From: Clostridia bacterium
GTDB taxonomy: Bacteria; Bacillota; Clostridia; Christensenellales; QALW01
Direction of reading: 5' to 3'
NCBI GenBank assembly: GCA_045594045.1
Contig: JAZNXV010000032.1
Location: 14,164-78,163 of the forward strand
DNA length: 64,000 nucleotides
How positions within the stretch are numbered: the stretch's first letter is position 1; each line of letters begins with the position of its first letter. A model generated the notes under the pieces. The model was given only the letters and a program-made list of their open reading frames with translations, searched no databases and was not told the DNA's origin. Shown here one piece after another: positions 6,260 through 62,647 of this stretch. The position numbers and the translations under genes were made by a program.

Positions 6260-6260
6260 A

Positions 6261-9446: not shown

Positions 9447-9452
9447 TTCTGT

Positions 9453-10562
9453 TTATGGGTTAGGAGTAACGACCTCAAGCTTTACAAATTGTGTATTACA
9501 TTCCGGCATTCTGTCACCTACTACCACAATTTCGCCCGCAGCAATTTTATTTTTTAAGGTGTTGTAATCTTCAACAGTAAAGTCCTTAAAAAGCCATAGA
9601 CCTTCGGAATCGGGAAGATACACGTAATTACCGTTTTGGAGTCCAAAGTAAGCAACCATGCCTCCCATTTTTTCCGTCCACTCACCTGCAAGAAGCATTT
9701 CAAGAGTGGCATCAACGCCCTCGGCAATACCTTTCATCGCGCTAGTCATAAAGGGATTGTAATCGTGCGTTTCGCCTACGTAAGATTGGTCGTTATTTGT
9801 GCCGATTAAGTATCCCAAGTGGTCAACTGCCTTTTGAGCGCATTGACCTGCGAACTCATCAGCCGAAGAAACCAGGATTATTTCCGTGCCCCCTGCATAC
9901 CAGCCTTCCACCGCAGTTAAGGCTTCTTCACGGGAAGCATAATCGGAAATATAGCCGAACTTAATCTCTATATTTTTATTTAACGCTACTGCCGCATCGT
10001 TTGCGCCGTGCACAAAGCCGTAACCGTAATTCGAATAAGCGTTTGCCTTATGGTCACCTAAGAAGCCAAGCTTAGTAAAACCGTCCTTAACTGCACCGTA
10101 GCCGGCAAGGTATCCGCTTTGGCATTGCCTGAACATTACGCAATGGGTGTTGCTTGCAACAGTGCCGATATCGGCTTCTGAAACGTCAAGCGCAATAAAC
10201 TTAACGTTTGGGTGAGCGCCCTGCATTTTTGCAATTACAGGTGCAAATTCATCCCCCATACTGATAACAACCGTAGCACCCTGGCTGATTGCGGCTGTAA
10301 ATTGCGCGGTAATTTTTTCTTCCGTCATATTTTCGGGCTGATAATAGCCGTAGCTGATACCGTTTGCTTCGCCGCAGGAAACAACGCCTTCCCAAACGGA
10401 AGCATATCTGAAATCGGTTTCAAGTTCGGTATCCATAGTAATGAGTGCTATTTTGCTTATAGGCTCAACAATGCCCGTTTGTGCGTCATTCGTCTTGCAG
10501 CCGGAAAAAGAAGCCAACGCAACAACAAGCACAAAAACTAAAATACTTTTTAACTTAGCCAT
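9453..10562 (-). CDS. BMP-family ABC transporter substrate-binding lipoprotein (PnrA/Med-like)
   Basis: 369 aa with a lipoprotein signal peptide and lipobox (ASFSGC) and a Bmp-family periplasmic binding fold sequence. Confidence 0.85.
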   Translation of the reverse strand: MAKLKSILVFVLVVALASFSGCKTNDAQTGIVEPISKIALITMDTELETDFRYASVWEGVVSCGEANGISYGYYQPENMTEEKITAQFTAAISQGATVVISMGDEFAPVIAKMQGAHPNVKFIALDVSEADIGTVASNTHCVMFRQCQSGYLAGYGAVKDGFTKLGFLGDHKANAYSNYGYGFVHGANDAAVALNKNIEIKFGYISDYASREEALTAVEGWYAGGTEIILVSSADEFAGQCAQKAVDHLGYLIGTNNDQSYVGETHDYNPFMTSAMKGIAEGVDATLEMLLAGEWTEKMGGMVAYFGLQNGNYVYLPDSEGLWLFKDFTVEDYNTLKNKIAAGEIVVVGDRMPECNTQFVKLEVVTPNP

Positions 10563-11088
10563 TGAATTTTTTCACCTTTACTGCAATCCAAACGTTAATC
10601 AAGCCCTCTGCAATAAGCATAATGCCTACTAAAAGCGCAAGTGTTTGTATCGCCTGATTTTTAATTATAATAAGAACTATTCCGCTTGCCAGAATTAAAA
10701 GCGAAAAAACAAGCGAAACGTACCAATATTTATAATTGCTTTTGCGCAAAGAAGCCGTGCATTGAAGGTCAATAATACCGTGATAAATAATGATAATACC
10801 GATAGCAACTGCAACAATATTTTGAAGCACTCTGGGATCAACAATAAAATAAATGCCTACAGCGCACAGAACAAGACCGATCAAAAGAGAGTATCTGTTT
10901 TCGCTCGAAGCTTCTTTAAGATATTTTGCAATGCTTATTCCACCTAAAACAGTAATAATAAGGCCTAACCCGATGCAAACAGCGTCAATAGCAACGGAAT
11001 AGAAAACAGTTATCAAAAGGCCCGCAAGCACCGTGATAATTGCAGAAAGCATATAATCCTTCCATAAAGCAGAAAAAAATTCCTTCAT
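10555..11088 (-). CDS. HdeD/DUF308 family membrane protein
   Basis: Six predicted TM helices in the repeating DUF308 pattern. The likely start is ATG 11088, preceded by AGGAGG. It overlaps the downstream BMP gene by 8 nt. Confidence 0.7.
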   Translation of the reverse strand: MKEFFSALWKDYMLSAIITVLAGLLITVFYSVAIDAVCIGLGLIITVLGGISIAKYLKEASSENRYSLLIGLVLCAVGIYFIVDPRVLQNIVAVAIGIIIIYHGIIDLQCTASLRKSNYKYWYVSLVFSLLILASGIVLIIIKNQAIQTLALLVGIMLIAEGLINVWIAVKVKKFNG

Positions 11089-47210: not shown

Positions 47211-48299
47211 TTAAACATTAAACCTGAAAAGCGTAATATCGCCGTCCTGCATAACGTATTCTTTTCCTTCTGAGCGCACAAGGCCCTTTTCCTTGGCGGC
47301 GGTCATTGACTTATATTTCATAAATTCATCATAGGCAATAATCTCTGCCCTGATAAAGCCGCGCTCGAAATCAGAGTGAATTTTACCTGCGGCTTGGGGC
47401 GCTTTAGTGCCTTCGGTAATGGTCCAGGCACGGACCTCGCTTTCACCTGCGGTTAAGAAAGAAATCAACCCAAGCAATTTATAGCTTGCTTTAACAAGAC
47501 GGTTCAGCCCGCTTTCTTCTAAGCCATACTCACCTAAGAACATTTCTTTTTCTTCAGGCTCAAGCTGAGAAAGCTCTTCTTCAATCTTTGCAGAAATCAC
47601 AAGCACCTGGTCCCCGTCTTTACTTGCAAGATCTCTAAGGCGGTTAACGCCTTCAGGCTCAGAGCCGATTTCGTCTTCCGAAATATTTGCCGCATAAATA
47701 ATAGGCTTTGTGGTAAGCAAGAAGAACGTTTTTGCAAGAGTCTGCTCTTCCTTTGACAATTCCATATTGCGAACGGGCTTTTCGTTTTGAAGCTGTTCAA
47801 TCATTCTCTCAAGAAGCTCAACTTCTTCTATTGCAGCTTTATCGTTACCGCGAGCCGCCTTTTGTGCCTTGTCAAGACGTTTTTCGCAAGTTTCAAGGTC
47901 AGCCAGAATAAGCTCTAAATTTATAGTTTCAACGTCACGAACAGGGTCAATAGAGCCGTCAACGTGAATAATATCGGAATTTTCAAAGCAACGCACTACG
48001 TGAACGATTGCGTCAACCTCTCTTATATGGGACAAAAACTTGTTACCCAAGCCTTCGCCTTTAGATGCGCCGCGAACCAATCCTGCAATATCAACAAATT
48101 CAATAAAAGCAGGGGTGTATTTTTTTGGATTATATATTTTTGCAAGCTCGTCAAGTCTTACATCAGGAACAGATACTACGCCCACGTTAGGCTCGATAGT
48201 GCAGAAGGGATAGTTTGCCGCTTCTGCTCCTGCATTGGTTATAGCGTTAAAAAGTGTGCTTTTACCTACGTTAGGTAAGCCTACAACACCTAATTTCAT
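47211..48299 (-). CDS. ychF: redox-regulated ATPase YchF (Obg-like GTPase family)
   Basis: 362 aa with the G1 motif GLPNVGKST and a C-terminal TGS-like domain. Confidence 0.95.
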   Translation of the reverse strand: MKLGVVGLPNVGKSTLFNAITNAGAEAANYPFCTIEPNVGVVSVPDVRLDELAKIYNPKKYTPAFIEFVDIAGLVRGASKGEGLGNKFLSHIREVDAIVHVVRCFENSDIIHVDGSIDPVRDVETINLELILADLETCEKRLDKAQKAARGNDKAAIEEVELLERMIEQLQNEKPVRNMELSKEEQTLAKTFFLLTTKPIIYAANISEDEIGSEPEGVNRLRDLASKDGDQVLVISAKIEEELSQLEPEEKEMFLGEYGLEESGLNRLVKASYKLLGLISFLTAGESEVRAWTITEGTKAPQAAGKIHSDFERGFIRAEIIAYDEFMKYKSMTAAKEKGLVRSEGKEYVMQDGDITLFRFNV

Positions 48300-48365
48300 A
48301 ATTCTCTATTTCTCCTTTAAAATCCTTTATTTATCAGGGTTTTCGGAGTATGGCGTATATCTACT

Positions 48366-48398
48366 ACTCCATTTTTACTCCATTTTTACTCCATTTTC
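48366..48398. repeat. 3 x 11-bp tandem repeat ACTCCATTTTT at the int-proximal element end (candidate arm-type integrase sites)
   Basis: Units start at 48366, 48377 and 48388. On the minus strand they read GGAGTAAAAAT x3 and run into GGAGTAGTAGAT. Confidence 0.8.
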
Positions 48399-48411: not shown

Positions 48412-49620
48412 TTAAGATTCATCTAAAACCTGATTATTTTCAAATTGCTTTATAGCCTGGTCCATAGACTCAGTTGTAACGTGAACATAACGGTCCATCG
48501 TTGTTTTGATACTGGCATGGCCTAGTAACTTTTGCAGCACCTTCGGTTGCATACCTGCCTCGATTGCTCTTGTGGCGTAGGTATGGCGCAGAGCGTGCAT
48601 ACAAAATCGTTTGATTTTCGCTTCATCACAAAGCTTATAAAGATGTGTGTCGTAGGAACTGTTCTTTGCCGGTTCTCCTGTACGCCAATTGATAAACACA
48701 AGATTTTCCATCACAAGCTGAGAGGTGGCACCTGTTCGCCTGTCTATGTACTCAAGTGTTTCTAATAGTAAGGGAGACTTTTTCCTATGTTCACGATTAT
48801 CCCATATCTCTTTCAGAATGTTGTATGCGCGTTCTGTCAGAGGTATGGTGCGATAGCTTTGCGGTGTTTTGGGCGGTCCTGCTCGCCAATATCCTTGTTT
48901 GTGTCTGTACTCCAAAGTTTTGTTGACGGTAAGCGTACGCTTTTCAAAATCAATCGCATCCCAAGTAAGTCCTATCAGCTCACCCGTTCGCAAACCCGTC
49001 TCAAGAATCAAAGCGTATTGATTATAATTATGAGAACGCTTTGCTGCCTGAAGAAAAATCCGTTGCTCTTCACGGGTTAGGAATTTTATATCATCCTTTG
49101 CTCGAACAGGTTTTGTGTATCGAACGCCGTTCATCGGGTGCTTTATGATTAAATCATTCATCAATGCCGCTTTCAGCATCGTACCCATTGCAATATAGGT
49201 TTGTCGGATGGTTGAGCCTGCATAGGTTTCATCCATTTCCAGTAAAACCTTTTTGCAATGCATTGGCTTTACGTTAGCAATTGCCATTTTACCGATGACC
49301 GGTTGAATATTGAAGGTGTACCGTTCGCGGTAGTTTCGCAACGTGTTCGGTGCGAGATCTCCAACGATATTTTCTATCCAAAATTCAAACCATTCATCAA
49401 CCGTAGTTTCGGTCGGAACAAAAATGCCTTCATGCTTATCGGCGTACTTGCTTTCTTCAATCCAGTTGCGAGCTTCGGGAATGGTAGCGAAATATTTTTC
49501 GTGACGATTGCCTAATTTGTCAACAAATCTTGCGCTGTATAACCCATCCTTTCTTTGACGAATGCCTTTGCCGCATTCTTTACCCTTTAAATTCTTTCCC
49601 AATATGTACTCCTTTCCCAC
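48412..49620 (-). CDS. int: tyrosine-type site-specific integrase, Tn916 Int-like with N-terminal arm-binding domain
   Basis: Catalytic motifs HALRHTYAT and LLGHASIKTTMDRYVHV. The N-terminus GIRQRKDGLYSARFVDKLGNRHEKYF resembles the Tn916 Int-N domain. An alternative start is TTG 49602 behind AAGGAG. Confidence 0.9.
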   Translation of the reverse strand: MGKEYILGKNLKGKECGKGIRQRKDGLYSARFVDKLGNRHEKYFATIPEARNWIEESKYADKHEGIFVPTETTVDEWFEFWIENIVGDLAPNTLRNYRERYTFNIQPVIGKMAIANVKPMHCKKVLLEMDETYAGSTIRQTYIAMGTMLKAALMNDLIIKHPMNGVRYTKPVRAKDDIKFLTREEQRIFLQAAKRSHNYNQYALILETGLRTGELIGLTWDAIDFEKRTLTVNKTLEYRHKQGYWRAGPPKTPQSYRTIPLTERAYNILKEIWDNREHRKKSPLLLETLEYIDRRTGATSQLVMENLVFINWRTGEPAKNSSYDTHLYKLCDEAKIKRFCMHALRHTYATRAIEAGMQPKVLQKLLGHASIKTTMDRYVHVTTESMDQAIKQFENNQVLDES

Positions 49621-49717: not shown

Positions 49718-49924
49718 TTATATCGTCAGTCTTGAACTGATAAACTCTTCAAACTCTTTACGTTTTACCAACTTCTTCTTACCCACAAAAAGTACGAACG
49801 GACAGTTTGGTGTGCGAAGCATCTCATCAATTTTATTAATTCCAATATTGCTGTACTCGGCGGCTTCACGTATTGTCAACGCCAACTTTTCGTGGATAGG
49901 AACCGTTTGAACATTATCTGTCAT
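49718..49924 (-). CDS. xis: excisionase (Tn916 Xis-like HTH)
   Basis: 68 aa. LTIREAAEYSNIGINKIDEML...LVKRKEFEEFI parallels Tn916 Xis [20 protein letters not shown]...IKRKQFEKII (the Tn916 sequence is recalled from memory). Confidence 0.8.
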   Translation of the reverse strand: MTDNVQTVPIHEKLALTIREAAEYSNIGINKIDEMLRTPNCPFVLFVGKKKLVKRKEFEEFISSRLTI

Positions 49925-49996
49925 ACAGTTTTATCCTCCTTTGATGTTTTTTCCGAAAACTTTTGTGGATAAAACTTGAGGAATGTTTTTTATTCA

Positions 49997-50014
49997 TTTC
50001 AAGAAAACATTAAC
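49997..50014 (-). promoter_or_regulatory. element 18-mer box GTTAATGTTTTCTTGAAA, copy a (upstream of xis-int)
   Basis: An exact 18-mer on the minus strand, about 75 nt upstream of the xis ATG. It contains the -35-like TTGAAA. Confidence 0.6.
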
Positions 50015-50060
50015 TAAATCTTCTGAAGAAAGTCGGCTAAAAAACAAAAAGAACATCACC

Positions 50061-50336
50061 GCAGTAAGTGATGTCCCCATAAAAAACACAGATATGTAGC
50101 AAAGCATGTCCCTAAAGAGAGAGTTTTTCGCAGTATGTGGTGATACCTTTTCCTTTTATTAAGCGGAGCAAAGATGACCCCGACTAAACTTATCCGTAGT
50201 AAAGGATGTCCCCACAGCATTACCACTATCCGTAGTAAAGCGTGATACCGTCTTATGAAGAAGCGTCCGCACTAAATATGTCCCTACTTATTAAGGGTAA
50301 TGCCAAAAAGATGATTTTGCAGAAATACACTCCCCC
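50061..50336 (+). repeat. array of 7 (plus 1 degenerate) iteron-like 17-18-bp direct repeats at ~35-bp spacing
   Basis: Copies start at 50061, 50096, 50130, 50165, 50196, 50232 and 50269, with a degenerate copy at 50319. The consensus is G[CT]AG[TC]AAAG-N-[AG]TG[TA][CT][CA]CC. The spacers are unrelated to one another. Confidence 0.85.
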
Positions 50337-50952
50337 TTATAGGGTAATTTTTGATTTACAATAATAATCGTACCTTATACAATGCTCAGCCGATGGAATG
50401 TTTATAAAAATCTAACTTTATCGTTCAAAATCATTAAAAAGCTTTTATTTTCGTTTTTCTATGACCAAAAGATAAAAAACTATAAAAATGATTTACTGTT
50501 CGATATGATTAGAGTTCGAGAGTTTTTTGCGCCTCTCGTTTTTGTATTTTAGACATTTTGAGAGAGCAAAATGATGCTCTGTATTTTTCACATTTACCTT
50601 CTTTTTTAGTTTTAAGAGCATCATACTTTCGGTTGCAAATGACAAAGAAATTATTTACATTTTGAGATGGGCAAGAGGGTCAGCAATCTTGTCATCCCAA
50701 AGGGACAGTCATCTTTTATAATCTCTATATGTAAATCATCGCAAATTGAATCGCACGAAATGACAGTCATTTATTCTCTCAAAACGCAAGTGAACCCCTC
50801 ATTAGAAAACGACAGTTTTCCCTATAATTAATCTCCTATTAATCTAAAAATAATCTATGAAGGTCATATACAAACGAGTACCATCTAATCATCCGGAAGA
50901 GAAAATCATCATCATTTGCAACCGACAATCATAAAAAATATCCCCATAAGAG

Positions 50953-50982
50953 AACGACCTGTGCCCGAAGGTGCAGGTCGTT
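50953..50982 (+). terminator. strong hairpin at the right end of the non-coding hub (terminator-like, plus strand)
   Basis: The 13-bp stem AACGACCTGTGCC / GGTGCAGGTCGTT has a CGAA loop. Two positions are G-U pairs on the plus-strand RNA but C-A mismatches on the minus strand. The downstream sequence AATGTTTTCTTG is only a weak U-tract. Confidence 0.5.
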
Positions 50983-50997
50983 AATGTTTTCTTGAAA
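50980..50997 (+). promoter_or_regulatory. element 18-mer box, copy b (upstream of the double-RHH-like operon)
   Basis: Exact GTTAATGTTTTCTTGAAA, about 100 nt upstream of ATG 51099. Similarity to copy a extends a further ~10 nt (TG-A-AAAA). Confidence 0.6.
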
Positions 50998-51098: not shown

Positions 51099-51602
51099 AT
51101 GATAACTAAACATCATTTTGTACTAACAAAGAAGGAACCCGAGTTAATCGCATTTATTACCTCACTTCCAAAAGGTGAGCGCAGTAAAACGGTTATAACG
51201 ATTATGACCGAGGCGTTAGAAGATAGTGTTGCTACTATCCCTATGAATTTTAGCATAGAACCAAGCAGCCAAAATTTGCACACGAAATTTTCTCTGCCAG
51301 ATGATCTGGTAAAAAAGTTTTGCAAGAAGTTCGGTTGCACCAAGGGATCTGTTGCTCCCACAATTAAAAGAGTAATTAAAAGGTGTATCGAGAAAAATCT
51401 TGTAACGCAAGCAGAATGGAAGCTCCCGTCAGAATCCTTTGATTCAGCATTCCCAAAAATGTTTAAGCGTGACGGGGATAAATACGAGGCTTTGTTAGAT
51501 GACAAAGAAAAATACAGAAAAATGCTTAAGGAGCACAAAAGGAGCTTTCTTTTGATGAAAGACACACTTTATATAGAAAGGAAAACTAAAAATGAGGGAT
51601 AG
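51099..51602 (+). CDS. hypothetical protein, tandem ribbon-helix-helix-like repeats (paralogue 1)
   Basis: About 167 aa starting at MITKHHFVLTKKEPELIAFITSLPKGERSKTVITIMTEAL. It has two strand-helix-helix-like segments and shares DKEKYRKML with DKYRKLC in the next gene. Confidence 0.5.
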   Translation: MITKHHFVLTKKEPELIAFITSLPKGERSKTVITIMTEALEDSVATIPMNFSIEPSSQNLHTKFSLPDDLVKKFCKKFGCTKGSVAPTIKRVIKRCIEKNLVTQAEWKLPSESFDSAFPKMFKRDGDKYEALLDDKEKYRKMLKEHKRSFLLMKDTLYIERKTKNEG

Positions 51603-52230
51603 ACAAACCGTACACATTGAATTTGATAAGTCTGCTTCCGATATAATCTGTTGGATGCAAGCGTTGCCGCCTCGAACGGTCAACCAAACCGTAAACGAAA
51701 TTTTAAGTGCAGAAAGCCGTGGCAAAACGGCTCGGATTTTGCACCGATTTTCGTATACAACACAAGCAGAACCGATAGGCTGCCAATTTATTATCCGAGA
51801 CAAAGACGCTTTGGCATTCTTGGCGAAAATTCCAAAGAGGAAGAGAAAACAAGCAATTATAAACGCTATTCAAAAGCATATACGAAAAAATCAAGAAATG
51901 CCGCCCGAACCCTTCCGCATAAATGAAAAGGTTTATGAGATTCTGGAAGAATTTATACCCAAGATGGAGCAAAAGGAATTGGAGTATGCCGGGACTCCTG
52001 ATAAATATCGGAAGCTTTGCGATTGTTATACCTTGGCAAAACAAGCAATATATCGCGAGATCCACAACTGCTATCAATTTGTGGACGAAAATCGCGGCGA
52101 CCTCAACCTTAAAAATTTAGACTGCGGTAAGATTGTTGATTCCGTGTTCGAATCGGTTTTCGGAACCACAAAAAAAGATACGGTCCAAAGTAATAATCAA
52201 TATATTTTTAACAACAACTCAAATGAATAA
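51592..52230 (+). CDS. hypothetical protein, tandem ribbon-helix-helix-like repeats (paralogue 2)
   Basis: 212 aa. VHIEFDKSASDIICWMQALPPRTVNQTVNEIL and CQFIIRDKDALAFLAKIPKRKRKQAIINAIQKHI align by eye with the two segments of the preceding protein. It overlaps that gene by 11 nt. Confidence 0.5.
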   Translation: MRDRQTVHIEFDKSASDIICWMQALPPRTVNQTVNEILSAESRGKTARILHRFSYTTQAEPIGCQFIIRDKDALAFLAKIPKRKRKQAIINAIQKHIRKNQEMPPEPFRINEKVYEILEEFIPKMEQKELEYAGTPDKYRKLCDCYTLAKQAIYREIHNCYQFVDENRGDLNLKNLDCGKIVDSVFESVFGTTKKDTVQSNNQYIFNNNSNE

Positions 52231-52246: not shown

Positions 52247-53098
52247 ATGAGTAATGAAAATGAAAATAAAACAGAATTAATGGCTATTGAACTGAACAAT
52301 CTTTTCAGCAAATTAAGCGCCAAAGAAAAGTTTGTTTTTGAAACTATTGTATCTAACGGCATTTCCGAAGAAAAAGAAGCCAAAGAAATTGTGGCTAATA
52401 TACCATTTGACGAAAATATGAGATTTATCAGCAAGGATACTGCTTGGCGTTCAATAATTACACTTGTTAAAGCGGGAATTTTCGATTTGCAAAGTATTCA
52501 TACCGGTTATCGCGTCTTTAATATTTTAAAATTAACCGATATAGGAGCTAAGCTGTATCGTCTGCAATTCAGGAAAGAACCGGCAGTGCAGGAACATATT
52601 CGACTAAGGAAAGAACATGCCAGTTACTTACATGGATATATGGTTAAGGACGTTGCAACAATCGTTGAGAAAAAGGGCTGGTATACTTGCATCTCGACCA
52701 ATCGAAAACAAAATACACTGAAAATTTCTGACGGCAGAACGCTGATACCGGACGTTATTGGAAAAAGCGGAGTAAAATTCGATTTGTATGAGGTTGAATG
52801 CGGAAATCATAATCAAGCTGATTTTAATGATAAATGTAATAAAATAATGACCGTCAGCCGAAAAATTATTATTGTCGGACAAAACAGGGATATCGTCACG
52901 AGAATTCTTAAACCGCAAGTAGAAAAATGGATTAAAACCGTTGGAAAAGGCGTGTTAAAAATGGTCGGTATGAAAGTATATCTGTTCGGTATGTCGGATT
53001 TAGCAGCAGGGCAAATAACATATTATTATGATATGAATTTTGAAGAACCTATTTGCTGTTTTAAGAAGCCGAAAAAGGAGGAAGCGACAGATGAGTAG
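52247..53098 (+). CDS. replication-relaxation (Replic_Relax)-like protein: N-terminal wHTH plus nuclease-like core
   Basis: GGAGG precedes ATG 52247. The C-terminal block LIPDVIGKSGVKFDLYEVECGNHNQADFNDKCNKI resembles the PD...E-x-D/E-x-G-T motif of Replic_Relax proteins. The match is by eye only. Confidence 0.45.
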   Translation: MSNENENKTELMAIELNNLFSKLSAKEKFVFETIVSNGISEEKEAKEIVANIPFDENMRFISKDTAWRSIITLVKAGIFDLQSIHTGYRVFNILKLTDIGAKLYRLQFRKEPAVQEHIRLRKEHASYLHGYMVKDVATIVEKKGWYTCISTNRKQNTLKISDGRTLIPDVIGKSGVKFDLYEVECGNHNQADFNDKCNKIMTVSRKIIIVGQNRDIVTRILKPQVEKWIKTVGKGVLKMVGMKVYLFGMSDLAAGQITYYYDMNFEEPICCFKKPKKEEATDE

Positions 53099-53366
53099 TA
53101 ATTTTATCAATGTTGGTAATAAGGTGTTTATCGATGCAAACAAAGTAAAGTTTATTGTGTCTGCCGATTCAGATAGAGTGCGCAAGCTCCTTTCCAAGCG
53201 AAAGTTCACAAGAACAAGTGATGAGGTGTTTGACGGAACATCGGACAAGGAAACCCGTTCCTTACTTATTTTGGATGATAATTCTTTCTGTATCTCAAGC
53301 GTGAATGCTGCCAAACTAGTTGAAAGAGCCAAAAGTGATATTGCTGAGTTGGTGGACGAAAAATAA
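53091..53366 (+). CDS. RemA/DUF370-like small DNA-binding regulator
   Basis: 91 aa behind AGGAGG. FINVGNKVFIDANKVKFIVSADSDRVRKLL...ETRSLLILDDNSFCISSVNAAKLVER parallels B. subtilis RemA [30 protein letters not shown]...[23 protein letters not shown] (the RemA sequence is recalled from memory). Confidence 0.5.
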   Translation: MSSNFINVGNKVFIDANKVKFIVSADSDRVRKLLSKRKFTRTSDEVFDGTSDKETRSLLILDDNSFCISSVNAAKLVERAKSDIAELVDEK

Positions 53367-53422: not shown

Positions 53423-53854
53423 TTATACTCTTGGTTCTCCATACTCTCTGCGCATAGCACTCATGGAAACGACCCACTGTTTACCAAACTTACACACGTC
53501 AACGCCTTCAACTAATTTACCATAGCTGATGGCTTTTCTGAGTGTGCTTTCGTTCAGAGCCCAAAGGTCAGTGGCATCACTGAATGCCATAAGACCATCA
53601 AAGGGAGTTTCTACCTCAACGCCGTTCTCCCATAGTTCATCACAGGAGAGATCTAAATCATCATTCCATACGATGCCGTGGCCGCCTACATCAACGATAA
53701 CCTCAGAGAACAGGTGAGGATCCTTCAACTCCGCAAAGAATGGTATGCGTTCAAACAAAGGCTTCACATCGTATATCTTAGTGCACCCTTCTACAAACTG
53801 AACGCTTAAGCGATATTCAGGCAACGGAGAAATATTTTTGATCTTATGAAACAT
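53423..53854 (-). CDS. DUF2442 domain protein with C-terminal HTH
   Basis: N-terminal DUF2442-like domain (ISPLPEYRLSVQFVEGCTKIYDVKPLF...). The C-terminus ATDLWALNESTLRKAISYGKLVEGVDVCKFGKQWVV is a typical Firmicute HTH. Confidence 0.65.
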   Translation of the reverse strand: MFHKIKNISPLPEYRLSVQFVEGCTKIYDVKPLFERIPFFAELKDPHLFSEVIVDVGGHGIVWNDDLDLSCDELWENGVEVETPFDGLMAFSDATDLWALNESTLRKAISYGKLVEGVDVCKFGKQWVVSMSAMRREYGEPRV

Positions 53855-53864
53855 AATAGCCTCC

Positions 53865-54170
53865 TTACTCTAACGGAGGAAGATGCTTGAAATCCTGAGT
53901 TTCCCAAATAGCAACGAGCTCGTTTTTGTGAAGGGATATCCATTCTCTTACCATTTCAAGCGCTTTAGAAGGCAAAGCACCTTCCAACACCTTTCCGTCA
54001 GCGATTGTGATTGCCGCCATATCATCGCCGTAAATTGCGTGGATATGCGGCGGATTGTGTTCCTTTTGTAAAAAGTACATACGGATTGTAATTCCGTAAA
54101 ATCTTGATAATACTGGCACTTCATCCACTCCTTTCAATTGCATTATATCACGGTATCGTGATATTGTCAA
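53865..54170 (-). CDS. DUF4160 domain protein
   Basis: FYGITIRMYFLQKEHNPPHIHAIYGD is the DUF4160 hallmark. It is paired with the DUF2442 gene. Confidence 0.7.
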   Translation of the reverse strand: MTISRYRDIMQLKGVDEVPVLSRFYGITIRMYFLQKEHNPPHIHAIYGDDMAAITIADGKVLEGALPSKALEMVREWISLHKNELVAIWETQDFKHLPPLE

Positions 54171-54207: not shown

Positions 54208-54225
54208 GTTAATGTTTTCTTGAAA
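54208..54225 (+). promoter_or_regulatory. element 18-mer box, copy c (upstream of the serine recombinase gene)
   Basis: Exact GTTAATGTTTTCTTGAAA. TTGAAA is followed 18 bp later by TATATT, about 55 nt upstream of ATG 54309. Confidence 0.6.
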
Positions 54226-54281: not shown

Positions 54282-54923
<642 letters not shown>

Positions 54924-55001: not shown

Positions 55002-55076
55002 CATAAAAAAATGAAAAATATTGAATTTTGTCTTTTATTATCTAAAAACGCAAAAAGTATTTGAATTAATAAATTA

Positions 55077-55102
55077 TTCTCAAAAGGTACACCTTTTGAG
55101 AA
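55077..55102. promoter_or_regulatory. IRR: palindromic candidate recombination site, inverted copy of the IRL core
   Basis: TTCTCAAAAGGT-AC-ACCTTTTGAGAA. The 20-bp core 55080-55099 is the exact reverse complement of 54934-54953. Confidence 0.6.
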
Positions 55103-55125
55103 ATGTTGGAAATGGAGGCGTTTAT

Positions 55126-58100
55126 ATGAAAAACTCTTTGCTCAAGAAGATGCTTGCAACTATCATTGCAGTTATATTAGTTGTTGGCATCTCGGCAGGA
55201 ACAAGCATTTTAGTTGATAAAAAAAGCGTTCCTGCATCAACAACAATCGAAAACGGCCTATCTGCTTACGATCTTGCTGTTCAAAACGGTTACAAAGGTG
55301 ATCTTGAACAATGGCTGATGTCGCTTGTTGGTGAAACAGGCACTGCGGGCTCTAATGGCAAGTCAGCGTATGAGCTTGCTTGCGAAAACGGATATAAGGG
55401 TACTATGACCGAATGGTTGGGTTCTCTTATCGGTACGCCCGGTGAAAATGGCAAGGTTGGTAAAGATGGCAAATCTGCTTATGAACTTGCTGTTGAAAAT
55501 GGATATAAAGGCACACTTAATGAGTGGCTTACATCTATACTTGATAAAACTGGTGCTGATGGAGCAAACGGTGCTGACGGTAAGTCGGCATATCAGTTAG
55601 CAGTTGAAAACGGATTTACCGGAACTATGTCTGAGTGGCTCGATTCTCTCGTTGGACGTAATGGTTTATCTGCATATCAAGTTGCTAAAAACAATGGTTT
55701 TACTGGTAGCGAAAGCGAATGGTTGTCAACTCTTGTTGGTGTTGCAGGTACAAATGGCGTTGACGGTAAATCCGCATATCAAATTGCCAAGGAGAACGGT
55801 TTTACCGGTACCGAAAACGAATGGTTACAGTCTCTTGTTGGACTTAAGGGTGACAAAGGTGACAAGGGCGATAAAGGTGATACCGGTGCAGCTGGCGCTA
55901 ATGGATTAAATGGTAAGTCTGCATTCGAAATTGCAGTTGCCAATGGCTATACCGGAACTGAAGCCGAATGGTTACAAACACTTGTGGGTGTCAAAGGTGA
56001 CAAAGGCGATAACGGTGCAACAGGTTCCGATGGTAAATCCGCTTATGAGCTTGCGGTATCAAATGGATATACCGGAACTGAAGCCGAGTGGCTGCAAACT
56101 CTTGTAGGCGCGAAAGGCACTGACGGTAAGTCTGCATATGACGTTGCAGTTGACAACGGCTTTATCGGCAACGAAAGCACATGGCTTGCATCTTTAGTCG
56201 GAGAAAAAGGCGATACAGGTGCACAAGGCAAATCAGCATACCAAGTAGCAGTTGCAAATGGCTATATTGGAACCGAACAGGCATGGGTTGCTTCTCTTGT
56301 CGGTGAATCTGCCTACGAAATTGCCGTAAGAAATGGTTATAAAGGAACTGAAGCTGAGTGGTTGGCATCCCTTGTTGGTGAGCCGGGTCAAAAGGGAGAC
56401 AAAGGTGACACCGGAGCAACGGGTGCTAACGGTAAATCCGCTTATGAGCTTGCTGTTTTGGCAGGCTTCGAAGGTGATGAGCAAGAATGGTTTGCTTCAC
56501 TTGTTGGCGCAACCGGCTCTAAGGGTGATAAGGGCGATAAAGGCGACCAAGGAAATAAAGGTGACACCGGTGCAACAGGTGCAGCGGGTAAATCGGCTTA
56601 TGAATTAGCAAAAGAAAACGGTTATACCGGAAGTCTTACGGAATGGCTAGAATCTCTAAAGGGTGAAGCAGCTGCCAAGGGAGACAAAGGTGACAAAGGC
56701 GATACCGGTGCTGACGGAAAGTCTGCATATGATTTAGCAAAAGAAAATGGTTATGAAGGAACCTTGGAAGATTGGCTTGACAGTTTGATAGGAACCAAAG
56801 GAGATAAAGGTGACGCAGGTACAGATGGTAAGTCTGCTTATGACCTTTATTGTCAGAATAATTCTGGCGAAGATATGAGTGAAGCCGAGTGGCTTGCTTC
56901 CTTAAAAGGAATTGCTGGTCAAAACGGAAAAAATGGCAAATCCGCTTATGAGTTATACTGTGAAAATAATTCAGGGGAAGATTTAGACCTTGCTGATTGG
57001 CTTGCTTCTTTACATGGTGACAAAGGTGATGCTGGTGCCGATGGTAAATCCGCTTATGACCTTTATTGCGAAACAAATGAAGGTGTTGAACTTTCTCTTG
57101 AAGAATGGTTAGCCTCATTAGTTGGTGCTGATGGTACGAATGGTAAATCTGCTTATGAATTAGCATATGAAGCTGATAACACAATAGGAACGCAGCAGGA
57201 ATGGCTTTTATCATTAAAAGGAAAAGATGGTAAATCTGCTTACGAAATCTATTGTGAACATCATGAGGGTGAGGATTTATCTGTAGTAGACTGGCTTGCA
57301 TCGCTTAAAGGTGAACAAGGACCTAAGGGTGATAAAGGTGACCCAGGTGTTAATGGAAAAACTCCATATATCAAAGATGGAAATTGGTGGATAGATAATA
57401 CAGATACAGGAATAAAAGCAGAAGCTTCTGACGGTTCAAACGGCAATGATGGTGTAAGCGTTGTTGATAGTTATGTAGATGATAACTTGCATTTATGGAT
57501 TGTGTTATCGAATGGTTCAAAAATTGATGCTGGTTATGTCGGTGTAACGACAGCCAATCCTTCTATCCCAACTAAGTTTACGGTGGTTTTCAAGGACTAT
57601 AACGGCACTATTTTGAAAACTGAAGACGTTGAATCTGGCAAATCTGCTACCGCCCCTACCAATCCTTCCAGAGACGGATACGTATTTGCGGGATGGGATA
57701 AAGATTTTAGTAACATTACCGCTGGTATGGTTGTTAATGCTACATACACTCAAATTACCGAGCCGACCATAAAAATAGCGAATATTACTACATCTGCCGG
57801 TTCTTCGGATGTGGCTGTAACTTTGAACATTATGAACAATCCCGGCATTGTTGGAATGACCTTGAAATTGGGATATGACGATAGCATCTTGACGCTTACA
57901 AGCATTGAGAAAGGCGATGCATTAAGCGAAATGACATTTACAAAGCCGAGAACTTTGAAGAATGGTTGTACACTTCAATGGGATGCTGAAGTAGTGATGC
58001 CTGAGGATGCTACCAACGGCGTTATGCTTACTTTGTATTTTGATGTTTCGGATAGTGCTACAGTGGGTACCCAAAACATTACATTAAGTTATGATAATGG

Positions 58101-58170
58101 TGCCATTATCGACAATGATTTAGCATCGGTGAATATGTCAATTATCAACGGCATTGCTACAATTAATTAA
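55126..58170 (+). CDS. membrane-anchored surface protein: 19 SAYELA-type modules interleaved with collagen-like GXY runs, one Listeria-Bacteroides (Flg_new) repeat, C-terminal cohesin-like domain
   Basis: ATG 55126 follows GGAGG. There is an N-terminal signal anchor (MKNSLLKKMLATIIAVILVVGISAG) and GDKGDKGDKGDTGAAG-type triplets. FTVVFKDYNGT...GYVFAGWD marks the Flg_new repeat. The cohesin-like tail is NNPGIVGMTLKLGYDDSILTLTSIEKGDAL... Confidence 0.85.
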   Translation: MKNSLLKKMLATIIAVILVVGISAGTSILVDKKSVPASTTIENGLSAYDLAVQNGYKGDLEQWLMSLVGETGTAGSNGKSAYELACENGYKGTMTEWLGSLIGTPGENGKVGKDGKSAYELAVENGYKGTLNEWLTSILDKTGADGANGADGKSAYQLAVENGFTGTMSEWLDSLVGRNGLSAYQVAKNNGFTGSESEWLSTLVGVAGTNGVDGKSAYQIAKENGFTGTENEWLQSLVGLKGDKGDKGDKGDTGAAGANGLNGKSAFEIAVANGYTGTEAEWLQTLVGVKGDKGDNGATGSDGKSAYELAVSNGYTGTEAEWLQTLVGAKGTDGKSAYDVAVDNGFIGNESTWLASLVGEKGDTGAQGKSAYQVAVANGYIGTEQAWVASLVGESAYEIAVRNGYKGTEAEWLASLVGEPGQKGDKGDTGATGANGKSAYELAVLAGFEGDEQEWFASLVGATGSKGDKGDKGDQGNKGDTGATGAAGKSAYELAKENGYTGSLTEWLESLKGEAAAKGDKGDKGDTGADGKSAYDLAKENGYEGTLEDWLDSLIGTKGDKGDAGTDGKSAYDLYCQNNSGEDMSEAEWLASLKGIAGQNGKNGKSAYELYCENNSGEDLDLADWLASLHGDKGDAGADGKSAYDLYCETNEGVELSLEEWLASLVGADGTNGKSAYELAYEADNTIGTQQEWLLSLKGKDGKSAYEIYCEHHEGEDLSVVDWLASLKGEQGPKGDKGDPGVNGKTPYIKDGNWWIDNTDTGIKAEASDGSNGNDGVSVVDSYVDDNLHLWIVLSNGSKIDAGYVGVTTANPSIPTKFTVVFKDYNGTILKTEDVESGKSATAPTNPSRDGYVFAGWDKDFSNITAGMVVNATYTQITEPTIKIANITTSAGSSDVAVTLNIMNNPGIVGMTLKLGYDDSILTLTSIEKGDALSEMTFTKPRTLKNGCTLQWDAEVVMPEDATNGVMLTLYFDVSDSATVGTQNITLSYDNGAIIDNDLASVNMSIINGIATIN
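55255..57360 (+). repeat. intragenic repeat array: ~19 copies of a ~25-aa module (K)SAYE[LI]A[VK]xNG[YF]xGTxxEWLxSLxG separated by variable-length Gly-X-Y stretches
   Basis: Modules were counted directly in the translated ORF. Spacer length varies from 0 to ~9 triplets. The last four or five modules are a diverged subtype (SAYDLYCxNNSGEDxxxxEWLASL). Confidence 0.85.
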
Positions 58171-58186
58171 TGAGAGGAGAACGCAA

Positions 58187-61100
58187 ATGAAGTGTAGACG
58201 ATTATTATCCGCACTTTTGGTAGCTGTAATGATATTAAGCAGTATACCATTGAGTGCTATCAGTGTAATAGCTGCTACCGGTTCTGAAACAAAGATTTCA
58301 GTTAACGATACCTTTGCAGCAAGCGGGACAGAGGTCAGCGTTGATGTCATTATCGAAAATAATCCTGGGATTCTAGGTATGACTCTGAAATTAGAGTACG
58401 ATGATGAATATGCAACACTTATGTCCGTTGTTAACGGAGAGGCTTTAAGCGCTATGACTTTTACCGCACCTAAAAGCCTTCAAAGCGGCTGTAATCTCCA
58501 ATGGGATGCTGAGTTTGTAGATGACGAAGATATTATCGATGGAGTAGTAGCCACCTTAACCTTCGAAATTTCCGAAGAAGCTCCTTCAAACAAAGAGATT
58601 GCTATCAGTCTTTCCTATGATAACGGTGCAATTATTGATAATGATTTAAATCCAATCAGCGTTTCGTTATCGAGCGGTACTATCAAAATCTTAGATTATA
58701 CCCCCGGTGATCTTAATGGCGATGGCACAATCAACTCTACAGACGTAGTTTACCTAAGACGATACATAGCTGGTTATGATATTACCATTAAAGAAGCGGC
58801 CGGTGACGTAAATGATGACGGCTTGTTGAACAGTACTGATGTTGTTTTCATAAGAAGATTTATTGCCGGTTACGACATTCAATTGAAGCCTTCTACCCCC
58901 AAGTGTCAGCATGTGATGACGGCGACAGAAGCAAAGGCAGCTTCTTGCACGGAGGATGGCAATATTGCTTATTGGTATTGTGAAGATTGTAACAATTATT
59001 TTAGTGATGCTAATGGACATACTAAAATTGAAATTGAAGAAACCGTAATAGAGGCTACCGGACATACACCTGTTGTGGACCTTCCTAAAGCTCCCACAAA
59101 AACCGAAACAGGCTTGACGGAGGGGTCACATTGCTCGGCATGTAAGGAAGTCATTGTGCCTCAACAAATATTACCTGTTTTAACAAGTTACGCAGTTACT
59201 TATAACATAGCTACAGGAAACAGCGCTAGCTATATTGCTGCGCAAGGTTTAGATTTAACAATTGATGACGATAAACGCTCATATATAAGTCAAGAAGGCC
59301 TTATAGAACTTCCGGTTCTTTCTATTGATGGCTATCAGTTCTTAGGCTGGTACACTGAAGCACCTGAGAATAATAATGCAGTTCAAGTTACTTCAATTCC
59401 TGTAGGTTCAACAGGTAATTATACGTTATATGCGCATTGGCACGAATATACGTATGATATTACATATAAGTTGTATCAGACACCTTTAGGCGAAATAACA
59501 AATGAAGAATATCTTCATTATACTGTTAGCAAAGGTAAGGTTGATTTACCCAATCCTGAGTTACACAACTACGTGTTTATTGGTTGGTATACAGACGATG
59601 GTGTAGAAATGACAAAGATACCTGTTGGAACAACCGGAGATTTAACGTTAAATGCGTATTGGACCAGCAAGAGAAACCTCACTAAAGTAGTTAAAAAATT
59701 AGAAGACCCCATTATTATAGAGAATAGTGACGATGGAGTTATATACTTTACTTATGAACTTGGTACAATTGAAAATGTTCCATTATCAGATGCAATTTGG
59801 ACGATACAAAGTGTATCGGGCTTAGCACAACAAGTTTCCAAAACAGTGTCAACGCAAATTAGTGAGGAGCAAGCAAAGAATATTGCGGAAACTATTTCTA
59901 ATTCAACGGTTGATTCTGGTAGTTGGACTTTATCAAAAGACTGGAACGATGTAACGGAAGTTAATGAAGAATGGGCAGAACAGAATGGATTAACCCAGGA
60001 AGAAGCAAACACACAAACAAAAAGCAGTTCAGGAACATATAGCGTTACGGATTCCACGGGCGGAACGAAAACCAAGACAACAACAGATGGAACAACAACA
60101 GTTGATTATAATAGTCAGAATTATACGCACGGAAACAGTGCTGAATTTAATGCGAAAGTTAGTGGTTCGTATTCAAACAAAGGAAATCTTTCAAGTGCGA
60201 TTGCAGGAACATATGAGGTGTCGGCCGAAATTAGTGGAGGTTACGAACAACATCAAGAAACAAACGAACATACTGGCACTGATACAACTACAGTGGATAC
60301 AACAGTTAAGTCCGGTACAGCAACATTTAACAAAGCATCCACATCTACAAACACTCAGTCTGCCAGTGAAAGTGTTACTGTAAAAAATGCAATTTCACAG
60401 ATTATAAGCAATACAAAGGGATATGGTAAGTCATACTCTTCTGGCGGAGCCAATAGCGAATCGCAAGGGTTTAGTTCAACAGATAGTAAGAGCGTAAATA
60501 CATCTTCCACACTTACATATTTTACATCCAAGACTGAAACAACTACAACAACTTATTCCACTGATGGTAAAAATGAAGGTTGTTACCGATTAGTTGTAGC
60601 AGGCACCATCCATGTGTTTGGCGTTGTAGGATATGATGTTGCAACAAAATCTTATTTTGCGTATACTTTTAACGTATTAGATGATAAAACCTATGAATTC
60701 CTTGATTATTCGCCTACTTTAAGTTTTGATGACTATGAAAATGGTGCAATACCTTTCGAAATCCCGTATTTTGTACATGAGTACGTTATAGATAAGACTG
60801 TTATGACAGATGGTCTTATATTTAAAACAAACACAACTAATGGTACAGCAACTGTTGTTGCATATGATGGTGCTGATAGTGATATTACTATTCCTTCGTA
60901 TTTTACCTCTGGTAACGTTGCATACAAAGTTAATGCTTTATCAGCTAGTGCATTTGCAGGTAAAAATGTACGTTCGGTAGTTTTGAGTGATTATATAACA
61001 GAATTACCAGACGGTGCATTTAAAAATTGTGCGCAATTGGAAGAAATTTCAGGATACTTCACAAAAATTGGTGCAGAAGCATTTAGTGGATGTGCTAAAC

Positions 61101-62647
61101 TCAACAAGTATAACATAACCTCAAGCATAGTGAAAATCGGCGAAAATGCGTTTGCTGGCGTTGAAGAAATTTATGTTAATGCTATAGATAAAGAAAGCGC
61201 ATTGGCAGAAGCTAATAAGAAATATCCCAATCTTGATGATGGCGAATTACTTATTTGCGCAAAGTCAATAACACAAGACGTAATTGATTCTGCTATAAAC
61301 TCAGGAGCAGATAATATAATGTTAAACATTTCAAATGTTATCGACAATATAGGTTTAACTCTTAATGTACCTGCAATCACGTCGTTTGAACTGCAAGGTG
61401 GCTTAAAAGAATATAAAGACTTAAAACTTAATTCAGATGCAGAGACAACCACAATAAAGGATATTACTATCCATAATAGCAAACAAATTCCTTTGGAAAT
61501 ATCCTCAAAAGTATTAAAATTAGATGCTGCAACAATAGAAGGAAATGGCTTTGTTCTTTTGCTTAATGCGGACACACCTACTGTTTCGTTAACAAGAGAT
61601 AGCAGATTGATTTCTGTGGAAAAAGAAGCGGTTGTATGGAAAAATCCTTCAATTTCATCAAGTGTTGTAGATAATGCTGTTGGTACTTTGGATATAACAG
61701 GAAACATTTATGTTTGTGGTGATATCGAAGGTAAAGATTACATAAATGTTGAAAGTGGTGCAATTATCAGCATATCCGAAAGCGAATTTGAAAATTATAT
61801 CAAAGGCATTTATACTGTTACGTTTAATGCTAATGGCGGTCAAGTAAGTATGATAGATAAGACAGTATTTTATGGCTCCCAATTCGGAGAACTTCCAATA
61901 CCTACTCTTGACTACCATACTTTTGATGGCTGGTTTACAGAGAATGGTACCGAAGTAACGGCTGATACAATTATGACGGAGGCAAAAGATATTGTTCTTA
62001 ATGCACATTGGACGCAAAACGATGCGTCTGGCTGGGTTTTAGAATCTGAGGTTCCAAGTGATGCTGAAATAGTTAATGAAAAATGGACGTATGATTTAAC
62101 CACTAAAATAACTTCTAGCAGTAATAATGTTTCTGGTTACAATCTATATGATGCAACGTGGGTATGGAGCAACTATGGCCACTGGACAAATTGGTCCTCA
62201 AGCGCAGTAGAATCAAGTGATTCCAGAGAAGTGGAAACAAAGAAAGTTGTAGACCGCGCTTCTTATACACAGTGGAACATATATTATTATCGTTATTGGA
62301 ATACAACGTATGGAGCATACTATTATACGTTTTCATCTGCTTATGGCGGAACCTTGTATCAAAGGTCTCTTCCCGAATCTAGCTTAGCATTTAGCAAATA
62401 TGCTTCCGGACGAGATGCTTACATTATTATTAATGAGGCCGACAGGAATTTCCGTGGAGAACTTTGGTTTGTAAGTTCAACTGAAACAATTCCTGAGATT
62501 GCACATACTGAATATAGATACAGAGAAAGAACGAAAATATATACATATTATCACAGCAAGACAGAGGCGAAAGAATCGTTCTCGCAAGTTACACCTAGTG
62601 ATTCTATTAGCAACGTTCAACATTGGGTTCAGTACCGCGCAAAATAA
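58187..62647 (+). CDS. large secreted multidomain protein: signal peptide, cohesin-like domain, type-I dockerin, Flg_new repeats, Thr/Ser-rich region, BspA-type leucine-rich repeats, C-terminal Trp/Tyr-rich domain
   Basis: ATG 58187 follows GAGAGGAGA. The cohesin is paralogous to the upstream protein's tail (NNPGILGMTLKLEYDDEYATLMSVVNGEAL). The dockerin has duplicated Ca-binding loops DLNGDGTINSTDVVYLRRYIAG and DVNDDGLLNSTDVVFIRRFIAG (nt ~58706-58876). The LRR segment is ITIPSYF...AFAGKNVRSVVLSDYITELPDGAFKNC. Confidence 0.85.
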   Translation: MKCRRLLSALLVAVMILSSIPLSAISVIAATGSETKISVNDTFAASGTEVSVDVIIENNPGILGMTLKLEYDDEYATLMSVVNGEALSAMTFTAPKSLQSGCNLQWDAEFVDDEDIIDGVVATLTFEISEEAPSNKEIAISLSYDNGAIIDNDLNPISVSLSSGTIKILDYTPGDLNGDGTINSTDVVYLRRYIAGYDITIKEAAGDVNDDGLLNSTDVVFIRRFIAGYDIQLKPSTPKCQHVMTATEAKAASCTEDGNIAYWYCEDCNNYFSDANGHTKIEIEETVIEATGHTPVVDLPKAPTKTETGLTEGSHCSACKEVIVPQQILPVLTSYAVTYNIATGNSASYIAAQGLDLTIDDDKRSYISQEGLIELPVLSIDGYQFLGWYTEAPENNNAVQVTSIPVGSTGNYTLYAHWHEYTYDITYKLYQTPLGEITNEEYLHYTVSKGKVDLPNPELHNYVFIGWYTDDGVEMTKIPVGTTGDLTLNAYWTSKRNLTKVVKKLEDPIIIENSDDGVIYFTYELGTIENVPLSDAIWTIQSVSGLAQQVSKTVSTQISEEQAKNIAETISNSTVDSGSWTLSKDWNDVTEVNEEWAEQNGLTQEEANTQTKSSSGTYSVTDSTGGTKTKTTTDGTTTVDYNSQNYTHGNSAEFNAKVSGSYSNKGNLSSAIAGTYEVSAEISGGYEQHQETNEHTGTDTTTVDTTVKSGTATFNKASTSTNTQSASESVTVKNAISQIISNTKGYGKSYSSGGANSESQGFSSTDSKSVNTSSTLTYFTSKTETTTTTYSTDGKNEGCYRLVVAGTIHVFGVVGYDVATKSYFAYTFNVLDDKTYEFLDYSPTLSFDDYENGAIPFEIPYFVHEYVIDKTVMTDGLIFKTNTTNGTATVVAYDGADSDITIPSYFTSGNVAYKVNALSASAFAGKNVRSVVLSDYITELPDGAFKNCAQLEEISGYFTKIGAEAFSGCAKLNKYNITSSIVKIGENAFAGVEEIYVNAIDKESALAEANKKYPNLDDGELLICAKSITQDVIDSAINSGADNIMLNISNVIDNIGLTLNVPAITSFELQGGLKEYKDLKLNSDAETTTIKDITIHNSKQIPLEISSKVLKLDAATIEGNGFVLLLNADTPTVSLTRDSRLISVEKEAVVWKNPSISSSVVDNAVGTLDITGNIYVCGDIEGKDYINVESGAIISISESEFENYIKGIYTVTFNANGGQVSMIDKTVFYGSQFGELPIPTLDYHTFDGWFTENGTEVTADTIMTEAKDIVLNAHWTQNDASGWVLESEVPSDAEIVNEKWTYDLTTKITSSSNNVSGYNLYDATWVWSNYGHWTNWSSSAVESSDSREVETKKVVDRASYTQWNIYYYRYWNTTYGAYYYTFSSAYGGTLYQRSLPESSLAFSKYASGRDAYIIINEADRNFRGELWFVSSTETIPEIAHTEYRYRERTKIYTYYHSKTEAKESFSQVTPSDSISNVQHWVQYRAK

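Follow-up and report, generated by a model that had tools for sequence, protein, structure and literature searches.

What binds the array of short direct repeats in the non-coding hub of an integrative element of Clostridia, and what purpose does the array serve? The question is raised by a 64,000-nucleotide stretch of DNA from a Clostridia bacterium (contig JAZNXV010000032.1), hereafter the window, in which the repeats, termed array A, occupy positions 50061-50337. The array lies within the hub, the 1.17 kb of non-coding DNA between the excisionase gene (xis) and the gene of a protein designated P167. The original prediction described it as a multi-protein landing pad for the integrase (Int) N-terminal domain and/or Xis, for two double ribbon-helix-helix (RHH)-like proteins or for a ring-forming RemA-like protein. 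Our analysis indicates that array A is a genuine, selected, element-specific array of predicted protein-binding sites. Its binder is most likely not the integrase but P283, a winged-helix/nuclease protein encoded by the element.

All eight sequences quoted in the original prediction were found on the plus strand. Seven strong copies and one degenerate copy are arranged head to tail, the unit being a 17-18 bp motif, GYAGYAAAGnATGTCCCC, with the variant form GTGATACC. The copies are listed below (related loci are designated L001 and so on):

50061-50078, plus strand: copy 1, GCAGTAAGTGATGTCCCC (pattern and weight-matrix match)
50096-50113, plus strand: copy 2, GTAGCAAAGCATGTCCCT (pattern and weight-matrix match)
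50130-50147, plus strand: copy 3, GCAGTATGTGGTGATACC, a GATACC variant (pattern and weight-matrix match)
50165-50181, plus strand: copy 4, GGAGCAAAGATGACCCC, 17 nt (weight-matrix match)
50196-50213, plus strand: copy 5, GTAGTAAAGGATGTCCCC, a fusion of two ancestral copies (comparison with relatives and weight matrix)
50232-50249, plus strand: copy 6, GTAGTAAAGCGTGATACC (pattern and weight-matrix match)
50269-50285, plus strand: copy 7, GCACTAAATATGTCCCT, 17 nt (weight-matrix match)
50320-50337, plus strand: degenerate copy 8, GCAGAAATACACTCCCCC, overlapping the conserved box C described below (about 9 bits in L001, L010 and L012; kept in every hub)

The start-to-start spacing is 35, 34, 35, 31, 36 and 37 bp, followed by 51 bp to the degenerate copy, and the cumulative positions hold no constant helical phase. 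Only about 18 bp of every ~35-bp period are repeated and the spacers are mutually unrelated; Tandem Repeats Finder reported nothing for array A because the repeats are interspersed with such spacers. The degenerate pattern GNAGYAANNNNTGNYMCC, with at most one mismatch, matched 10 times in the window, five of them inside the array, against a shuffle expectation of 1.39 +/- 1.23 (0 of 100 shuffles reached 10). A two-half weight matrix at a threshold of at least 15 bits placed seven of its eight plus-strand matches across the whole window inside the array and gave none on the minus strand; as it was trained on the array's own copies, this window test is circular and not independent. The array DNA has a GC content of 40-44%, and an AT-rich minimum of 21% GC follows 90-170 bp past it. 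Copy 1 also pairs with positions 50049-50060 to form a terminator-like hairpin on the minus strand (50049-50078), followed by a T-run, and this hairpin could insulate xis from leftward transcription.

Support that does not depend on the trained matrix comes from related elements, since homologous hubs keep the array. The same array was found in the hubs of L001, L010, L011, L012 and L013, with nine strong copies and one degenerate copy, 9(+1), in L001, L010 and L012 and 7(+1) in L011 and L013, as in the window. Among close relatives the spacing is kept position by position, within +/-1 bp. Relative to L001, L010 and L012, the window, L011 and L013 have a ~70-bp, two-copy deletion, which maps at 50196-50213 (versus 8930-9016 in L001); this copy-number polymorphism is consistent with recombination between repeats. 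It had been proposed that homologous elements be aligned to see whether repeat cores are conserved while spacers drift, and this is what the comparison of L001 with L010 revealed, with 82% identity in the cores and 54% in the spacers (Fisher p=1.5e-8).

Across elements the copy number changes by whole units, being 3, 7 or 9, each with one degenerate copy. The reduced elements L022, L023 and L050 carry 3(+1) copies of the ATGTACAAATAGATGTCCCC type at ~37 bp spacing. In divergent elements the same motif family occurs in the same orientation and always directly upstream of box C. The motif reads ATGTAAYAAnnnATGTCCCC in L015-L017, L044, L055 and L056 (in gapless alignment, GTARTAAMGRATGTCCCC), ATGTRAYAAnnnATGAACC in L047, and CTGTAYAAAnATnTGGGC in L048, where at least 10 copies are present.

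Two rival explanations may be considered here. The ~35-nt period is like that of ToxI, and the array might be a transcribed RNA repeat array, CRISPR-like or of the type III antitoxin (ToxI-like) kind. However, 18 of the ~35 nt rather than whole units are conserved, the repeats are degenerate, and the spacers are orthologous and drifting rather than replaced or newly acquired. No cas or toxN-like gene was found in the window annotation, no Rfam match was obtained and no upstream promoter reads into the array, and this explanation is hardly credible.

A classical theta-type origin has more in its favour. According to it, the repeats would be iterons at which an initiator melts AT-rich DNA and recruits DnaA and a helicase, the excised element replicating as a plasmid. 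Like the iterons of R6K, RK2, pPS10 and P1 type (17-22 bp), the 17-18 bp repeats of array A are direct, in one orientation, with conserved cores and an adjacent AT-rich stretch; their variation in copy number is typical of iteron arrays, and on the present proposal they too would dock a winged-helix protein encoded by the element. The window contains a perfect DnaA box, TGTGGATAA, at 49964-49972, but it lies in the xis leader and is confined to the window group, the closest relatives. Moreover, searches of Pfam, NCBIfam and PHROGs revealed no Rep-family initiator (Rep_3, RepA_N, Rep_1/2/trans), primase or helicase gene in the module. The spacing of 31-37 bp with unrelated spacers is out of helical phase, in contrast to iterons at ~22 bp or multiples of it. 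The element is integrative and its hub DNA gave no match to plasmids or phages. We thus regard an iteron origin as improbable.

In every hub examined, the last degenerate copy of the array runs into a near-invariant box, termed box C, which is followed by a promoter-like site and a structured region of about 600 nt. All of these, always preceded by the array, were missed by the original prediction. They are:

50332-50348, plus strand: box C, CCCCCTTATAGGGTAAT (also written CCCCCTTAWAGGGTAAT), near-invariant (22 related loci with at most 3 mismatches)
50355-50383, plus strand: sigma-70-like promoter TTTACA-17-TACAAT, right after box C (10 of 12 positions matching, by consensus scan only)
50390-50952, plus strand: B region, conserved and non-coding, with TCATTTCGAAAnGACAGT-type units and covarying helices (85% nucleotide identity to L010; alignment A4, RNAalifold and pair counts)
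50934-50950, plus strand: distal array-A-like copy or box, AAAAATATCCCCATAAG, lying at the B region's 3' end and in part complementary to box C (repeat search and alignment)
50953-50982, plus strand: intrinsic terminator, a hairpin in which family members show compensatory and G-U changes (terminator prediction and covariation)

The alignment shows that a TTGATT -35-like hexamer after box C is kept in all groups. The B region is 85% identical to that of L010, compared with 79-88% for most module and recombinase genes, 97% for xis and 56% for the whole array. Within it, about 8-12 units of TCATTTCGAAAnGACAGT recur at intervals of 21-25 bp, some in each orientation. Folding of alignment A4 (11 sequences) with RNAalifold gave 70 pairs, with 94.7% of cells paired. 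Compensatory changes were found in 15 pairs, compared with 8.2 +/- 1.5 in shuffles (0 of 500 reached the observed number) and 3-10 in slid controls. Support is strongest for the helices 50571-50580/50615-50624 and 50653-50667/50777-50791 and for the terminator, and G-U pairs fit the plus strand. Single-sequence folding was better than shuffles on both strands (z -4.3 and -3.9) and so did not tell them apart.

An Rfam search of 48.2-54.4 kb returned only a chance lncRNA match, leaving the B region without an Rfam family. The stretch 50390-50985 on the plus strand, ~600 nt between the promoter-like site and the terminator, is presented as a candidate for a new large structured RNA or an element active in single-stranded DNA; action of the B-region structure in single-stranded DNA, in the manner of a single-strand origin (sso), is possible. 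The small open reading frames of the hub (50056-50226 on the minus strand, 50382-50552 and 50667-50831) could be assigned to no family and show no conservation. Box C, scanned for as an exact pattern, turned up in 0 viral and 2 metagenome contigs.

The gene order around the array is ychF (minus strand), tyrosine integrase (minus), xis (minus), hub, P167-P212-P283-RemA-like (plus) and cargo. The neighbours named in the original prediction, an adjoining xis and a RemA-like gene downstream, were confirmed by family searches:

47211-48299, minus strand: ychF, abutted by the element end (annotation)
48359-48394, minus strand: 11-bp tandem arm-type-like units, GGAGTAAAAAT twice and GGAGTAGTAGAT, between the int stop and the ychF start (repeat search)
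48412-49620, minus strand: tyrosine integrase (family search)
49718-49924, minus strand: Tn916-type excisionase, xis (PF09035, E=6e-32)
51099-51602, plus strand: P167, paralogue of P212, tandem-RHH-like, with no Pfam family (family and homologue searches)
51592-52230, plus strand: P212, two beta-alpha-alpha units and then a helical domain, tandem-RHH-like (low-confidence model)
52247-53098, plus strand: P283, N-terminal winged helix and C-terminal PD-(D/E)xK-like domain, candidate binder of the array (model with a predicted local distance difference test score, pLDDT, of 91)
53091-53366, plus strand: RemA-like protein, its start overlapping the P283 stop by 8 nt (PF04025, E=2e-12)

P167, P212 and P283 have no Pfam, NCBIfam or PHROG family match. 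Elements of this kind were seen inserted upstream of ychF in several species. In the window, att direct repeats of the int-proximal end were sought elsewhere and none of at least 12 nt was found, nor was the far end of the element found within it.

A genome scan with a P283 alignment revealed 40 loci, mostly in metagenome-assembled genomes of Acutalibacteraceae and other Clostridia from ruminant guts, whose gene set-ups were mapped by tblastn. At some of them the four-gene module stands beside the same Int/Xis as in the window, while in L027, L039 and L045 it is accompanied by a 28%-identical Int/Xis placed downstream and in L017 by a large serine recombinase. A reduced module of P283 and the RemA-like gene, without P167/P212, stands beside a 90%-identical Int/Xis in L022, L023 and L050. 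Finally, in L025, L028, L029, L031, L032, L034 and L040 the four-gene module is chromosomal and hub-less, has no recombinase nearby and keeps only a 17-mer motif. In L029 its neighbours are a MazF toxin gene, an extracytoplasmic function (ECF)-type sigma factor gene and a transglutaminase-like gene.

Across three recombinase set-ups the hub co-travels with the P283 and RemA-like genes. Every version that has a recombinase retains it, while the immobile, int-less chromosomal copies lack it, which points to a role in mobility. P167 homologues are rare (10 clusters), and their contigs show ychF, int-xis, a ~1.35-kb gap, P167-P212-P283-RemA-like and then differing cargo, which includes a HATPase_c_3 system in one and a type I restriction-modification system in another. 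The smallest arrangement was seen in L039 (~5560-10720), where an element of only ~5.5 kb, possibly complete, consists of the hub, P167, P212, P283, RemA-like, xis and int, with no cargo. Literature searches returned no account of this element family, and these small integrating elements from rumen Clostridia are apparently undescribed.

The same comparison bears on the proposal that the array consists of arm-type or recombination directionality factor sites of an intasome, bound by the Tn916-type Int N-terminal domain and/or Xis and controlling excision. The array adjoins xis, and the likeness of its left half (GGAGCAAAG, GTAGTAAAG) to the int-proximal units GGAGTAAAAAT and GGAGTAGTAGAT, pointed out in the original prediction, is real in the window, where these units have 8-9 nt in common with the left half of several copies; the three 11-bp units at 48359-48394 are themselves likely to be Int arm-type sites. 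However, this likeness does not track the recombinase across elements. The array homologue (GTARTAAMGRATGTCCCC) persists with a serine recombinase in L017 and with a 28%-identical tyrosine integrase in L044, while in L022, L023 and L050 the integrase is 90% identical and accompanied by GGCGTAAAAAT arm repeats, yet the left half of the array is different (ATGTACAAATAGATGTCCCC-type).

In elements with a rearranged gene order, it is box C that the array accompanies, rather than int/xis. It lies ~1.7 kb from the int-proximal element end, beyond int and xis and outside the att arms near the element ends, and its sites are interspersed, unlike the tandem arm-type (DR2-like) repeats of the Tn916 family. 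L001 is uninformative on Int/arm co-variation, since its Int N-domain is identical to that of the window and only the C-terminus and the end region differ. Int-N and/or Xis as dedicated binders of the array are ruled out by its persistence with unrelated recombinases. The intasome explanation appears largely refuted by the comparison of elements, and we regard it as very improbable.

With regard to the two double-RHH-like proteins, P167 and P212, it was found that L022, L023 and L050 lack them and still carry 3(+1) copies, and the proteins are thus dispensable for the array. They track instead the family-wide 17-mer TTAATGTTTTCTTGAAA (also written TTAWTGTTTTCTTGAAA), which occurs three times in the window:

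49997-50013, minus strand: 17-mer facing xis (repeat search and locus scan)
50981-50997, plus strand: 17-mer facing the P167 operon (locus scan)
54209-54225, plus strand: 17-mer before the cargo invertase gene (locus scan)

The 17-mer is present in almost all loci with RHH genes, hub-less ones included, and missing from L022, L023 and L050. Since its occurrence follows that of the tandem-RHH genes, both where these are present and where they are missing, it is probably the operator of these proteins or a dedicated promoter. The double beta-alpha-alpha pattern of P212 suggests a tandem RHH; its model is poor (pLDDT 56), too poor for a fold search, and no match to PDB sequences came from profile searches with P212 and P283.

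The RemA-like ring protein was also proposed as a binder. The footprint of RemA consists of AT-rich 7-bp units repeated every 10 bp, and RemA depends on R50 and R51 to bind DNA (PMC8481266); with the R51A substitution, binding is abolished. In all 12 members examined, the RemA-like protein has K-E-T-R where RemA has R50-R51-T-R53 (R50K, R51E), so that both DNA-binding arginines are absent. The sites of RemA at B. subtilis PepsA/PtapA resemble array A in being repetitive and preceding a promoter, and the module encodes a ring protein of the RemA family. These sites differ in being weakly conserved, AT-rich and 7 bp long, with one unit every 10 bp, whereas array A consists of specific 18-mers every ~35 bp and contains no AT-rich 7-bp units at a ~10-bp period. 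Direct binding of the array by this protein is accordingly not supported.

The list of candidates in the original prediction left out P283, the protein that best tracks the hub and is present wherever the hub is. Its assignment as binder is an argument by elimination. The AlphaFold2 model (pLDDT 91) consists of a winged helix followed by a PD-(D/E)xK-like domain, the architecture of a MOBC-type relaxase. Foldseek matched the N-terminal part to PadR, MarR and TubR and the whole protein or its C-terminal part to Can2, VC1899 and Bax1-type nucleases, all with weak E-values. The invariant residues of the family are PD-x12-YEVE, H and K.

The TubR match (rank 12) raises the question of whether array A is a centromere-like partition site of parC/tubC type with an RHH or winged helix-turn-helix (wHTH) adaptor, since both RHH (ParR) and wHTH (TubR) adaptors bind direct-repeat arrays. 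This is very doubtful, as the module contains no ParA, ParM or TubZ-type NTPase and the element is integrative.

The P283 family comprises 532 representative clusters (one per 50%-identity cluster). Among ~40 members scanned, none had a confident Pfam match. Weak matches to PF13814 Replic_Relax (best E=0.004) and NCBIfam MobC NF041423 (best E=0.006) were obtained in 3 of 28 members, and P283 of the window matched neither. The family is absent from phages, and the sole match in a viral fold library was an unannotated Bacillus phage G protein. On plasmids it was found only as 'hypothetical' genes beside ssb/dnaE on megaplasmids. Many homologues are ~480 aa long with an extra N-terminal domain, which is not P212; these long forms are neighbours of ssb/dnaE on Ruminococcus albus 7 and Alkaliphilus megaplasmids (L051, L052).

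The closest functional parallel is the MOBC oriT (origin of transfer) of pAD1/pAM373. The direct repeats of pAD1 TraX are short and closely spaced. TraX, the MOBC relaxase of pAD1, is described as combining a wHTH with a PD-(D/E)xK domain and as binding 5 direct repeats that lie 70-120 bp away from nic, and the accessory proteins of relaxosomes typically belong to the RHH type (PMC12857230). P283 has the same two-domain architecture, and array A is a direct-repeat set beside an invariant box. By eye, P283 and the pAM373 TraX homologue also seem to share an aromatic-E-[IV]-E motif preceded, 13-18 residues earlier, by an Asp. In contrast, array A has 7-10 copies of 18 bp at ~35 bp, compared with 5 copies for TraX (PMC12857230), and the ~600-nt structured, probably transcribed region and the RemA-like partner have no counterpart there. 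No homology could be detected between the sequences of P283 and the pAM373 TraX homologue, which itself matches PF13814 at E=5e-6, and comparisons with this homologue and with CloDF13 open reading frames gave no confirmation of a MOBC link. The likeness of array A to a MOBC oriT would be functional, as it would be to iterons, and membership in either family is at most a possibility.

The retention of the hub with recombinases and its loss in immobile modules favour a cis-acting role in processing the excised element. Our tentative preference is for array A as a loading site in the DNA-processing hub of the element: P283 would bind it and would then probably act at box C, where transfer or replication would start. 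The winged-helix domain of P283 would recognise each 18-bp copy, one protomer per copy and all facing the same way, and the oligomer might be organised by the translationally coupled RemA-like ring protein. It would bring the PD-(D/E)xK-like domain to box C and to the AT-rich promoter region beside it, where P283 may nick or remodel the DNA and thereby start transfer or replication of the excised circle. The same action could also control the hub promoter, with P167/P212 serving as accessory proteins or regulators at the separate 17-mer. Of the landing-pad proposal, the conserved and selected protein-type sites in the hub of an integrative element are retained and Int-N/Xis as binder is not; its suggestion of an origin- or oriT-like or regulatory nucleoprotein role is still the best reading.

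A number of observations weigh against this preference. No coupling protein or type IV secretion system genes were seen, and when the P283 family profile was set against the pAM373 TraX homologue, hhalign gave a probability of 0.2 and hmmsearch nothing. The array spacing of 31-37 bp, out of helical phase, differs from that of both pAD1 and classical 22-bp iterons. Upstream of long-form P283 homologues, on megaplasmids and in other genomes, no arrays were found, and in group-3 modules P283 is retained although the hub is missing. Finally, a promoter, a terminator and covarying helices that include G-U pairs give the downstream region the look of a transcribed one, and a purely transcriptional role therefore fits equally.

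That role is the main rival. The array would consist of activator or repressor sites for the box-C promoter of the ~600-nt RNA and, in the window, also for the divergent xis promoter, with the RemA-like protein, P167/P212 or P283 as the transcription factor and no DNA processing. It should be noted that the two explanations are not mutually exclusive. A conserved promoter-like site follows 20-90 bp after the end of the array, which takes up the interval between two divergent promoter motifs, the downstream region shows RNA-type covariation and a terminator, and RemA-family proteins are known to activate promoters from repetitive upstream sites (PMC8481266). However, 8-10 sites over ~300 bp would be unusual for one promoter, the RemA footprint (7-bp AT-rich, 10-bp period) is unlike the array and the local protein carries R51E, and P167/P212 are absent from elements that keep the array. 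In addition, the immobile module copies, which would still be in need of regulation, have no hub. A purely regulatory array is somewhat unlikely, although it deserves serious consideration.

Going beyond the window, the hub, P283 and the RemA-like ring might form the core of an undescribed class of mobilisable or replicative integrative elements with a new DNA-processing machinery, as opposed to a variant oriT or origin. In such elements a repeat ruler would load a PD-(D/E)xK winged-helix enzyme, at most a very distant relative of MOBC, acting with a large structured nucleic acid. We consider this unlikely as it stands. How genomic islands are transferred or replicated is in most cases not known. 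The module defined here is minimal and recurrent, being made of the array, box C, the ~600-nt region, a wHTH-nuclease, a RemA-like protein and sometimes tandem-RHH proteins. It moves between integrases and carries variable cargo, such as type I restriction-modification, an uncharacterised HATPase_c_3-containing cluster, toxin-antitoxin genes and surface proteins. If the array does load a nuclease-type relaxase or initiator, the two would constitute an experimentally tractable cis/trans pair. A function would then be suggested for the P283 family, with its more than 500 representative clusters, as well as a non-biofilm role for RemA-like ring proteins, and a candidate large structured RNA absent from Rfam would be added.

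The cargo of the window begins shortly after the RemA-like gene. A DUF4160 (DhiT-toxin-like)/DUF2442-HTH_59 pair is encoded at 53423-54170 on the minus strand and a serine invertase at 54309-54923 on the plus strand. These are followed at 55021-62647, also on the plus strand, by two giant surface proteins with collagen, cohesin, dockerin, leucine-rich and Listeria-Bacteroides repeats.

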